A DNA stretch of 5,673 nucleotides from a virus. Its lineage: Duplodnaviria; Heunggongvirae; Uroviricota; Caudoviricetes. Location of the stretch: the IMG/VR virus record IMGVR_UViG_2541047120_000010. The stretch is one strand, 5' to 3'. Position 1 is the stretch's first letter. Each line of letters begins with the position of its first letter. A program made the translations under genes and the position numbers. Of this stretch, positions 3,308-4,785 are shown in pieces. A model generated the notes under the pieces. That model was not told the DNA's origin. It did no database searches and was given only the letters and a program-made list of their open reading frames with translations.

Positions 3308-3365
3308 CTTGTGTTGGTCGCCAGAAAATGAAATTAGGCAGCAAACCACTTATTTGAGGTGATAT

Positions 3366-3617
3366 ATGGAATTTCATGAAAGTGCGATTTGTGATTTTCG
3401 CGCTAACGCAAATTCAGTAAAACCACAGCCAATTGCAGTTCTTTTTAAAACAATGGGTGCGTGGGCTGTTTTATGCTTCGCCGCTGACGACACTGACGCA
3501 AGAATGGCAATAGGACAAGAGATGGAGATGGACCCGACAAACGATGAATTCATAATTTATGGCGCTCCATCTAATTACTTACTTGATACCTGCAACATTT
3601 ACAACAAGGCTGCCTGA
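3366..3617 (+). CDS. Hypothetical protein, 83 aa, in the slot that holds ral in lambda
   Basis: ATG 3366 with good SD GAGGTGA (3352-3358). Translation MEFHESAICDFRANANSVKPQPIAVLFKTMGAWAVLCFAADDTDARMAIGQEMEMDPTNDEFIIYGAPSNYLLDTCNIYNKAA. No family recognised. Confidence 0.6.
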   Translation: MEFHESAICDFRANANSVKPQPIAVLFKTMGAWAVLCFAADDTDARMAIGQEMEMDPTNDEFIIYGAPSNYLLDTCNIYNKAA

Positions 3618-3663
3618 TGGTGGCCTTTATTTTTGGCATAAACAACAGAATAAACACAGCACT

Positions 3664-3691
3664 GTGTATTCATTCCAACGAGTGAATACAC
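3664..3691. repeat. Inverted repeat with 9-bp perfect arms (GTGTATTCA ... TGAATACAC) and a 10-nt spacer, in an intergenic region
   Basis: Seen directly: gtgtattca(3664-3672) ttccaacgag tgaatacac(3683-3691). Not followed by a U-tract. Could be an RNA hairpin (processing site) or a protein-binding dyad. Confidence 0.4.
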
Positions 3692-3753
3692 GGAGCAATG
3701 TCGCTCGTAACTAAACAGGAGCCGACTTGTTCTGATTATTGGAAATCTTCTTT

Positions 3754-3780
3754 GCCCTCCAGTGTGAGGGCGATTTTTTT
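3754..3780 (+). terminator. Intrinsic terminator inside the pL operon (tL-like), expected to be overridden by N
   Basis: gccctc(3754-3759), loop cagtgt, gagggc(3766-3771), then gaTTTTTTT (3772-3780). Followed immediately by GGAGG (3784-3788) and ATG 3793. Confidence 0.7.
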
Positions 3781-3792
3781 GACGGAGGATAT

Positions 3793-4761
3793 ATGAGTGA
3801 AGTAACAGATTTAGTTGTTATTGAAAAAGCAAATGCAATGACTGTATTTCAGTCTGCCGACCAGATTGAAGAAATCCTTCAAAAGGTTGAACGTGAAGTT
3901 ATGTCCTTTGTGCCTGATATCACAACGGCAAAGGGCAGAAAGGAGATCGCTTCTCTGGCGTATAAAGTTGCGCAGACGAAAACATATCTCGATGGTCTTG
4001 GCAAAGACCTTGTTGCTGAACTGAAGGAAATTCCAAAGCTAATTGATGCCAACCGCAAGACAGTGCGCGATCGCCTTGATGAACTGAAAGCCAAGGCACG
4101 CCAGCCTCTTACTGATTATGAGGAAGAACAGGCGCGAATTAAAGCCGAAGAAGAAGCTAAGGCAGCAGCTGAAGCTCTCGCAAAGCAAATTGAGTCTGAC
4201 CATGAAATAGCGATTTTGATGGATCGCGAATTTGACCGCCAAAGAGAAGAGGCAAGACTCAAAGCGGAGCAGGAAAAGCGAGAGCATGAAGAACGCTTAA
4301 AAAGAGAAGCTGAAGAGAAAGCCAGAGCAGAAGCCGAAGCAAAGGCAAAAGCCGAAATTGAAGCAGCAGCAAGGCGAGAAGCAGAAGCTAAGGCCGCAGC
4401 GGAACGTGCAGAGCGTGAACGCATTGAAGCCGAGCAACGAGCACAGCGCGAAGCAAAAGAGGCAGCAGAACGAGCCGAAAGAGAAAAGCAGGCGGCAATT
4501 GAAGCAGAACGTAGAAAAGCACAGGAGGAGGCTGAACGAATCCGGCGCGAGGCTGAAGCAAAAGAGCAAGCCAGAATAGCAGAAGAAAAAAGAATCAAGG
4601 ACGAAGAAGAGCGTAGAGCAAAGGATAAAGCTCACCGGAAAGAAGTAAATAACAAAATACTTGCTGACCTTATCAAGTTTGGTGCATCAGAAGATGTTGC
4701 TAAAAATATCATAACAGCCATCGTAAAAGGCGAAGTATTCGCAACAAAAATAACCTACTAA
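3793..4761 (+). CDS. Hypothetical protein, 322 aa: N-terminal globular region, ~190-residue E/A/K/R-rich predicted helical segment, short C-terminal domain
   Basis: Start placed at ATG 3793 (GGAGG at 3784-3788) rather than the ORF-track ATG 3739, which would put the terminator hairpin inside the coding region. Central region (roughly aa 110-300) is a low-complexity charged repeat (…AEEKARAEAEAKAKAEIEAAARREAEAKAAAERAERERIEAEQRAQREAKEAAERAEREK…). Codon periodicity is maintained through the repeat. Occupies the sieB/ea10 slot between N and cIII. Confidence 0.75.
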   Translation: MSEVTDLVVIEKANAMTVFQSADQIEEILQKVEREVMSFVPDITTAKGRKEIASLAYKVAQTKTYLDGLGKDLVAELKEIPKLIDANRKTVRDRLDELKAKARQPLTDYEEEQARIKAEEEAKAAAEALAKQIESDHEIAILMDREFDRQREEARLKAEQEKREHEERLKREAEEKARAEAEAKAKAEIEAAARREAEAKAAAERAERERIEAEQRAQREAKEAAERAEREKQAAIEAERRKAQEEAERIRREAEAKEQARIAEEKRIKDEEERRAKDKAHRKEVNNKILADLIKFGASEDVAKNIITAIVKGEVFATKITY

Positions 4762-4785
4762 TAAAACCAACATAAGGAACCACCC

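Follow-up and report, generated by a model that had tools for sequence, protein, structure and literature searches.

Which functions occupy the stretch between N and cIII in the pL operon of a lambdoid prophage when the genes flanking the lambda ral-ea10 linker have been exchanged for others? We examined positions 3308-4785 of a 5,673-nt stretch of viral DNA (IMG/VR record IMGVR_UViG_2541047120_000010; hereafter, the window), which comes from a lambdoid prophage and spans its immunity and early-left region; the plus strand runs in the pL direction. This interval holds an 83-residue open reading frame (ORF), named orf83 here, a spacer, and a 322-residue ORF, named X. The original prediction had assigned the interval to the N-to-cIII slot, which the Pfam and PHROG neighbors bear out, and each of its features (orf83, an inverted repeat, a terminator and the 322-residue ORF) was located in the sequence. 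The two genes, then called unrecognized, are as sequences members of PHROG 2471 (orf83) and PHROG 1376 (X). We consider it probable that the interval is a mosaic, delayed-early stretch of the lambda pL type with three functionally independent modules, X being an accessory factor of a recombination/replication module. The content of the interval is mostly already known or catalogued; of interest are the large and hardly studied X family and its close association with recombination operons.

X matches PHROG 1376 at 3e-110. The ORF list of the window gives it a TTG start at 3739; homologs begin with MSEVTDL, hence the ATG start adopted here (Table 1). Its DNA is ~98% identical to mEp234_033 and to Sf6 gene 33, and the upstream linker and downstream cIII are alike as well. 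These two proteins, together with Orf53 of the Pseudomonas phage D3 and ORF39 of Ab31, are hypothetical proteins of PHROG 1376, like X. A first protein search with the X N-terminal domain returned truncated proteins only (≤213 residues), and an exhaustive search of representatives was needed. This exhaustive N-domain profile search gave 5,705 family clusters (50% identity), with E ≤ 1e-30 for 1,629; the typical length is 330-360 residues.

The neighborhood of X was sampled with one genome per species, from Erwinia, Yersinia, Aeromonas, Pseudomonas, Comamonas and Acinetobacter to Sulfitobacter and Sphingobium. ORFs of the 61 resulting loci, 56 of which were usable, were clustered and representatives identified with Pfam. 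A gene for ERF, RecT/Red-beta, YqaJ, SSB or a DUF3799 PDDEXK protein lies at most three ORFs from X in 47 of the 56 loci, the location that characterizes the Agt/Mog family, though in the window cIII and kil intervene before gam. The annealing protein is encoded by the very next ORF in 26 loci, usually 7-10 nt downstream. Elsewhere the next ORF encodes a Sak4-like protein (L099, the one checked) or falls in one of two unannotated families that take up the annealing-protein slot.

Annotated phages agree with this picture. In Ab31, 7 nt separate the end of the X homolog ORF39 (4001-5065 of locus L146; N-domain ~52% identical) from ORF38, which encodes Bet and is followed by ORF37 (Exo) and ORF36 (SSB). 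ORF38-36 constitute the published “BAS” recombineering operon; ORF39 goes unmentioned in its paper, which describes the operon as having no RecBCD inhibitor. The order is X, Erf, YqaJ, NinB in Sinorhizobium phiLM21, and recombinase, SSB, X in Vibrio BT-1011, while in Erwinia EhrS_49 a few genes separate X from Erf downstream of it. A Gam homolog begins 7-8 nt after X in prophages of Citrobacter, Raoultella and Pseudescherichia. A locus scan of viral contigs gave near-identical E. coli loci only and so serves for co-occurrence, not diversity. In ~60 of these 67 loci, X and cIII are followed by Erf, SSB and Abc2; the lambda-type Bet/Exo pair, as in the window, is rare.

From its leading position in operons for annealing proteins, exonucleases and SSB, we infer that X is a recombination/replication accessory factor. 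On these comparisons, X is most likely an accessory factor of a recombination module and not an anti-restriction gene. The X gene leads such operons across Proteobacteria, in enterics often directly before gam, and its product would most likely modulate the interplay of the phage DNA-end functions (Gam, Abc2 and annealing proteins) with host nucleases or DNA in a way that lets them be both tolerated and productive. X accompanies annealing proteins of unrelated families, namely ERF, RecT/Red-beta and, in at least one case, a Sak4-like protein, and its C-terminal domain shows no co-variation with annealing-protein type (coefficient -0.012, permutation p = 0.75). The lack of co-variation speaks against contacts that are particular to one annealing family. 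Taken together, these two observations suggest that the target is shared by all systems, being the host DNA-end machinery or DNA itself, and is not one particular annealing protein.

A more specific role is proposed by the annotation of phage phi80, whose homolog of X was reached through the EhrS_49 record. Aligned over the full length, X shares 51% identity with phi80 Agt (PHI80_40, JX871397; E = 1e-64), described in the phi80 record as “anti-toxin for Gam; Mog (modifier of Gam)”. In phi80, agt is followed after a 7-nt gap by gamL (“host RecBCD/SbcCD enzymes inhibitor; toxic without Mog”), then by recT and exo. Both proteins have 322 residues, the same three-part architecture and homology that includes both conserved domains, and both genes stand in the pL operon upstream of a gam-annealing protein-exo module. 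On the other hand, agt abuts gamL, whereas X and gam are not adjacent in the window, and GamL is just distantly related to the Gam of the window. An E. coli-toxic gene was reportedly seen as a gap in a sequencing contig by Rotman and colleagues in 2012.

The whole function of X could hence be that of a Gam antitoxin or modifier that binds Gam, or Gam with RecBCD/SbcCD, and limits toxicity to the host. The homology to Agt, the wording of the phi80 record, the direct succession of X and Gam in phi80 and in the Citrobacter, Raoultella and Pseudescherichia prophages, and the presence of Gam in the window itself all speak for it. However, a Gam homolog was detected in only 2 of 60 diverse loci, and Abc2 in 2 of 60; most diverse loci have ERF or RecT right after X, and in the large majority of the E. 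coli viral loci the partners of X are Erf-SSB-Abc2 and not Gam. A 322-residue protein with a ~25-nm spacer is also atypical for an antitoxin. Since most members of the X family have no detectable Gam or Abc2 nearby, a Gam antitoxin could be no more than one instance of a wider role, and we regard it as unlikely to be the whole function of X. Identity of X with Gam itself (PF06064) was rejected, as X has no Pfam Gam match and the window has a separate gam.

The AlphaFold2 model and the composition of X support a long, rigid, charged helix between two conserved terminal domains, as the original prediction had proposed. X is predicted to be all-helical, with a conserved N-terminal domain, a charged spacer of single alpha-helix type and a small C-terminal helix-loop-helix. 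The N-domain carries the motif VPDxTTAKGRKEIASxAYKVAxxKTYLDxxGKDL...ID..R...R..LD......R.PLT.WE; over residues 41-115 the mean majority-residue fraction is 0.71, and T45, G48, R49, S54, K63, D67, G70, K71, D85, R88, R92, D96, R103, P105, E110 and R115 are invariant or nearly so. The C-domain (~50 residues, predicted helix-loop-helix) has the motif R..D..H...IN.......G.....A....I..G.IP...I.Y-COOH and ends in a conserved aromatic residue. Between them, the linker varies from 43 to 191 residues across 104 homologs (~180 in X). Many non-enteric relatives, unlike X of the window, have an extra middle segment with a W.EF motif.

An AlphaFold2 model of X built from 104 sequences (mean predicted local distance difference test score, pLDDT, of 86) has one continuous helix from residue 46 to 295 and then a short helix-loop-helix; the pLDDT dips to 53-62 over residues ~141-180. 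The composition of the linker (residues 110-290: E 28%, A 24%, R 16%, K 11%; E+R+K 54%; ~10% hydrophobic) agrees with the model. There is no heptad signal (power no better than in shuffles), while opposite-charge pairs at i+3/i+4 are enriched (z = 5.8). An AlphaFold2 monomer model does not distinguish one helix from a coiled coil. In its richness in E, R, K and A, its low hydrophobic content, the absence of heptads and the i/i+3-4 salt pairs, the modeled linker resembles a single alpha-helix of the ER/K type (myosin VI medial tail, INCENP, zuotin). It differs from these by an unusual richness in alanine and by an 11-residue (hendecad) stripe. This alanine/hydrophobic stripe has a period of 3.67 residues, is matched by none of 1000 shuffles, and a peak at this period is present in about one third of 102 relatives. 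The stripe may reflect an untwisted alanine-zipper dimer instead of a pure single alpha-helix.

Database searches named no function for X. No meaningful match was found in Pfam, NCBIfam or PADLOC, and none in Pfam for 38 family members including X. Sequence and profile searches of the PDB gave compositional matches only, the profile matches being confined to charged-helix regions such as those of myosin VI, zuotin and INCENP. We found the X family neither named nor tested in any accessible paper.

Genes in a comparable position are known from Firmicutes phages, where DUF1351 (PF07083), Sipho_Gp157, DUF2483 and Mu-Gam-like genes lie immediately upstream of ERF, RecT or Sak4 with SSB (PMC8093625). 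Genes of the DUF1351 type, as in the gp48-Sak4-SSB order of Oenococcus phi9805, encode proteins of ~300 residues like X. There is no detectable homology between DUF1351 and X: hhalign gave probabilities of 0.2% and 1.5% against an alignment built from phi9805 gp48, X has no Pfam match to the family, and a shared origin was rejected. By positional analogy only, X may be regarded as the proteobacterial counterpart of these genes. Tentatively, then, the Agt/Mog family could be a general and overlooked component of single-strand-annealing operons throughout Proteobacteria, a bipartite adaptor with a rigid spacer that would control how phage end-processing, annealing and nuclease-inhibitor functions engage the host DNA-end machinery; this wider proposal is possible, though we would not rely on it. 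If true, the family would be a new class of component beside annealing protein, exonuclease, SSB and anti-RecBCD protein, and published “minimal” recombineering operons such as BAS of Ab31 would have been cloned without their native first gene. It would also help to explain why transplanted Red-like operons function poorly or are toxic in new hosts, and would give a handle for better recombineering.

Several points weigh against X as an accessory factor of the recombination module. Synteny is guilt by association. The functional label in phi80 is a GenBank annotation only. In the window, 382 nt separate the X stop from the gam start, most non-enteric members of the family have no detectable Gam or Abc2 nearby, and the co-variation expected of a partner of the annealing protein was not found in the C-domain. 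A survey of lambdoid Rec modules (PMC12315714) does not list this gene among the module members. Fold searches were uninformative; the one in BFVD retrieved unnamed family members only.

The original prediction had instead suggested, for either gene or for both, an anti-restriction, anti-defense, host-takeover or superinfection-exclusion function, as for ral and sieB in lambda. In favor of this, orf83 occupies the ral slot and shares with ral its last four codons and the downstream linker; what lies upstream of X differs greatly between loci (ral, an Sf6 gp34-like gene, ea10 or none), as in a hotspot of accessory genes; and an inhibitor of a host nuclease would count as anti-defense in a broad sense. 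However, orf83 has no similarity to Ral, and neither protein matches PADLOC, Pfam or NCBIfam families. X is neither variable nor tied to particular hosts but conserved in a fixed recombination synteny from Enterobacteriaceae to Sphingomonadales, which is atypical for anti-defense morons, and it exchanges with ea10, not with ral or sieB. For X, synteny with annealing proteins, exonucleases, SSB and Gam, together with homology to phi80 agt, points to a recombination module and a Gam modifier, and the earlier functional reading is probably wrong. We hold this reading as a whole to be improbable, though for orf83 an anti-defense role is conceivable.

X has also been given many names in public records: hypothetical protein, “TolA”, “cell envelope biogenesis protein”, “antitoxin protein”, “fibrinogen binding protein” and “ribosome recycling factor”, with colicin import membrane protein and Smchd1 further names of the family. 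The misleading ones all appear to stem from the E/A/K/R-rich helix. The TolA label, which would make X a cell-envelope protein, is frequent in phage and E. coli records, and X shares with TolA domain II an E/A/K-rich helical composition. Yet the NCBIfam model (TIGR02794) scores X at 9.4 bits against a cutoff of 59.45, X has no Pfam match and no transmembrane or signal segment (maximal 19-residue Kyte-Doolittle mean, 0.96), its conserved N- and C-domains are unrelated to TolA, and the gene sits in an early DNA-metabolism operon. The label is a compositional artifact and the reading is effectively refuted. Proteins widely mislabeled “TolA” would thus be re-annotated as members of the phi80 Agt/Mog family.

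Some loci of the X family contain further genes of note. PHROG 10048 (271-306 residues) and PHROG 3657 (276-461 residues) have no Pfam match and stand in the annealing-protein slot, after X (L115, L116, L118, L123) or beside the DUF3799 nuclease (L097, L103, L111, L114, L086); both are candidates for unrecognized annealing proteins. In Aeromonas/Pseudaeromonas loci (L095:9166-10392, L100:9277-10314), the gene after X encodes a coiled-coil protein of 346-409 residues, not an annealing protein. In a Citrobacter prophage (L147:7917-8420), a 167-residue protein (PHROG 21613) is encoded between Gam and YqaJ, where an annealing protein is expected.

The second module is the spacer between orf83 and X, which the original prediction had treated as plain non-coding sequence with an inverted repeat and an intrinsic terminator. 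Both elements are there (the 9-bp arms at 3664-3672 and 3683-3691), but the spacer corresponds to the PreS/tL2a module of lambda. Positions 3601-3779 are 97.8% identical to the lambda ral-ea10 intergenic region (179 nt). Compared with shuffled sequences, the spacer is strongly structured (3600-3785, z = -5.05), as is the PreS stretch (z = -3.1). LPR1, since renamed PreS, is a small RNA (sRNA) dependent on Hfq that was mapped in lambda between ral and ea10 with its 3′ end at tL2a; it is ~88 nt long, processed to ~68 nt and bound by Hfq, and is kept at ≥92% identity in ~2,500 genomes (bioRxiv 10.1101/2024.10.31.621285). The 88-nt stretch of the window equals that of lambda except in the length of the U-run, well within this range of conservation, and it ends in the GC hairpin and poly-U of tL2a between the genes in the ral slot (orf83) and the ea10 slot (X). 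Hence genomic position, GC hairpin, U-tail and upstream hairpins are as in lambda; the U-run is one T longer and the flanking genes differ. By sequence identity, the spacer module is the already known PreS sRNA gene, with tL2a as its 3′ Hfq-binding part. Rfam has no PreS model and gave no match anywhere in the window.

Two other hairpins precede the terminator. The inverted repeat extends to 14 bp as RNA and is identical in lambda, Sf6 and mEp234. The PreS start deduced from lambda lengths coincides with its 3′ foot, so that this hairpin, directly 5′ of PreS, may mark a processing boundary; the ~68-nt form would begin near 3713. Further upstream, a terminator-like hairpin absent from the earlier reading (stem 3606-3627, U-run to 3635) opens the block common to the window and the 3′ end of lambda ral. 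It is conserved in lambda, mEp234 and Sf6 and is annotated as a rho-independent terminator in mEp234.

In lambda, PreS is specific to the lytic cycle, activates translation of the host dnaN and supports phage replication (bioRxiv 10.1101/2024.10.31.621285). By identity with lambda, PreS of the window would raise translation of host DnaN (beta-clamp) in lytic growth, and activity of PreS in this prophage would be expected on the same grounds. Here too a point must be set against our reading of the interval, as expression of PreS and its 5′ end in the window would follow from lengths reported for lambda. What has been a “non-coding spacer with terminator” in thousands of E. coli prophages would be re-annotated as a PreS sRNA gene.

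The original prediction had also proposed that the 322-residue gene is a delayed-early function expressed through antitermination. Read-through of tL2a in lambda depends on N. Delayed-early expression of X is consistent with this biology because the terminator in front of it is the N-suppressible tL2a of lambda; by analogy, X would be transcribed from pL only once N reads through tL2a. The search for an internal promoter for X gave one weak consensus match (3529-3556), promoter-like sites being not above chance.

The linker separates DNA of different origins. By BLAST, positions 1-3779 of the window are 99.9% identical, and positions 4837-5673 98.6% identical, to the Shiga toxin (Stx) phage 2851, in which the order is N, orf83, linker, ea10 (“ssb” in the record), cIII, kil, gam, bet. 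Positions 3623-4884 are 98% identical to Sf6, and 3242-4884 to mEp234. The left junction of the cassette is at 3779/3780, exactly at the end of the tL2a/PreS U-run; the right one lies inside cIII, the match to phage 2851 resuming at 4837. From this 2851-type backbone with an Sf6/mEp234-type segment, it follows that a cassette of X and part of cIII replaced ea10. Judged by these alignments, recombination has shaped the window: its backbone is phage-2851-like, with X in the place of ea10. Ea10 of lambda occupies the exact same slot, between tL2a and cIII, and the nearest backbone relatives of the window carry ea10 there, yet it is an unrelated protein of 122 residues (PHROG 646, “unknown function”). 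In a few loci ea10 and X co-occur. The linker is near-identical in Sf6 and mEp234 though the flanking genes differ, and the Sf6 record labels the tL2a site “homology to phage lambda; tL2A” and “bsq4 boundary sequence”. The ral-ea10 linker would serve also as a conserved boundary sequence for exchange of gene cassettes, and the window offers a clean case of this, ea10 giving way to X at an RNA element that is functional and conserved.

This mosaic bears on the proposal that orf83 and X form a co-inherited two-gene system with the terminator as an internal regulator. The genes are adjacent in the window, mEp234 and HK633. Yet among the ~68 X-bearing IMG/VR loci with enough upstream DNA, orf83 precedes X in ~7 only, the others having ral, the Sf6 gp34-like gene, ea10 or nothing recognizable in that place. 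Conversely, Stx phages such as 2851 and VT2-Sakai have orf83 without X, ea10 coming next. DNA of the interval is matched in 346 phage records and partly in 2,273 of 5,426 complete E. coli genomes, of which only 295 cover ≥80% of it. In the window itself, the left cassette junction splits orf83 from X. The check on co-occurrence suggested earlier thus shows that the two ORFs are not a linked pair, and a two-gene system, which we consider extremely improbable, is already refuted by this distribution.

The third module is orf83, whose strong ribosome binding site was confirmed (GAGGTG, four bases upstream of the ATG). It matches PHROG 2471, a family labeled function unknown, at 1.4e-61. Its 19 homologs at the cluster level come solely from Enterobacteriaceae, with 70-99% identity and no change in length, and the gene is present in 56 phage records, mainly of Stx2-converting phages. 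In Citrobacter prophages, it lies directly after N or in the equivalent place of the operon. It is a genuine conserved gene restricted to Enterobacteriaceae and always first after N, where it would be a small accessory gene in the slot that holds ral in lambda. It is not Ral: BLASTP against lambda Ral gave no alignment at E ≤ 100. The genes share their last four codons (NKAA-stop; 3604-3617 in the window, ~3088-3104 of the lambda locus L144) and all downstream DNA. Since the 3′ end of orf83 is that of lambda ral, the mosaic junction is inside the coding C-terminus. Searches of Pfam, NCBIfam, PADLOC and the PDB gave no family, defense-system or structural match for orf83.

Table 1 Coordinates of features in the 5,673-nt window
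Feature	Position	Strand	Basis or remark
cro	298-513	minus	Pfam and PHROG
cI	627-1283		Pfam and PHROG
N	3035-3307		Pfam and PHROG
orf83, 83 residues	3356-3617	+	PHROG 2471; GAGGTG Shine-Dalgarno 3356-3361, ATG 3366, stop 3615-3617
Terminator-like hairpin, 9-bp stem then UUUAUUUUU	3606-3635	+	Scan; overlaps orf83 stop
14-bp RNA hairpin	3662-3693 (arms 3662-3675/3680-3693)	+	Inverted-repeat search and RNA fold
PreS/LPR1 Hfq-dependent sRNA (by identity with lambda)	3693-3780	+	Lambda identity; ~88 nt counted back from U-tract
Intrinsic terminator tL2a	3754-3780	+	Scan; GCCCTC-CAGTGT-GAGGGC (3754-3771), T7 at 3774-3780
Gene X, 322 residues, Agt/Mog family (PHROG 1376)	3784-4761	+	GGAGG 3784-3788, ATG 3793, stop 4759-4761
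X N-terminal conserved domain, residues 1-115	3793-4137	+	Alignments
X charged helical linker (predicted), residues ~110-290	4120-4662	+	AlphaFold2, composition
X C-terminal conserved domain, residues ~271-322	4603-4758	+	Alignments; pLDDT 93-98
cIII	4786-4956	+	Pfam Lambda_CIII 9e-25; right cassette junction inside
gam	5144-5440		Pfam Gam (PF06064) 1e-64

Around the interval, Pfam and PHROG also identified kil and the start of bet, giving the order X-cIII-kil-gam-bet. A promoter scan placed a pL-like promoter at 2817-2845, and nutL boxA/boxB-like sequences were read by eye near 2891-2938. Over the whole window, the number of promoter-like sites does not exceed chance (7 against an expected 8.0), and terminator-like sites are in modest excess (12 against an expected 6.8).

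Between cI and pL, where lambda carries rexAB, the window has a 173-residue ORF (1785-2306; PHROG 2602, labeled unknown function), a 40-residue ORF (2480-2602) with a weak match to PHROG 21154, and a strong terminator-like hairpin (2608-2629). Neither ORF matches Pfam, NCBIfam or PADLOC. The exact 173-residue sequence occurs on at least 1,000 contigs and is named in a UniProt entry of E. coli O157:H7. This set of features may represent a moron or defense gene expressed in the prophage. The ~120 nt just upstream of pL that include the hairpin (2608-2723) are 87.5% identical to the lambda rexB-oL region (4709-4827 of locus L144) and, on this alignment, look like another conserved linker.

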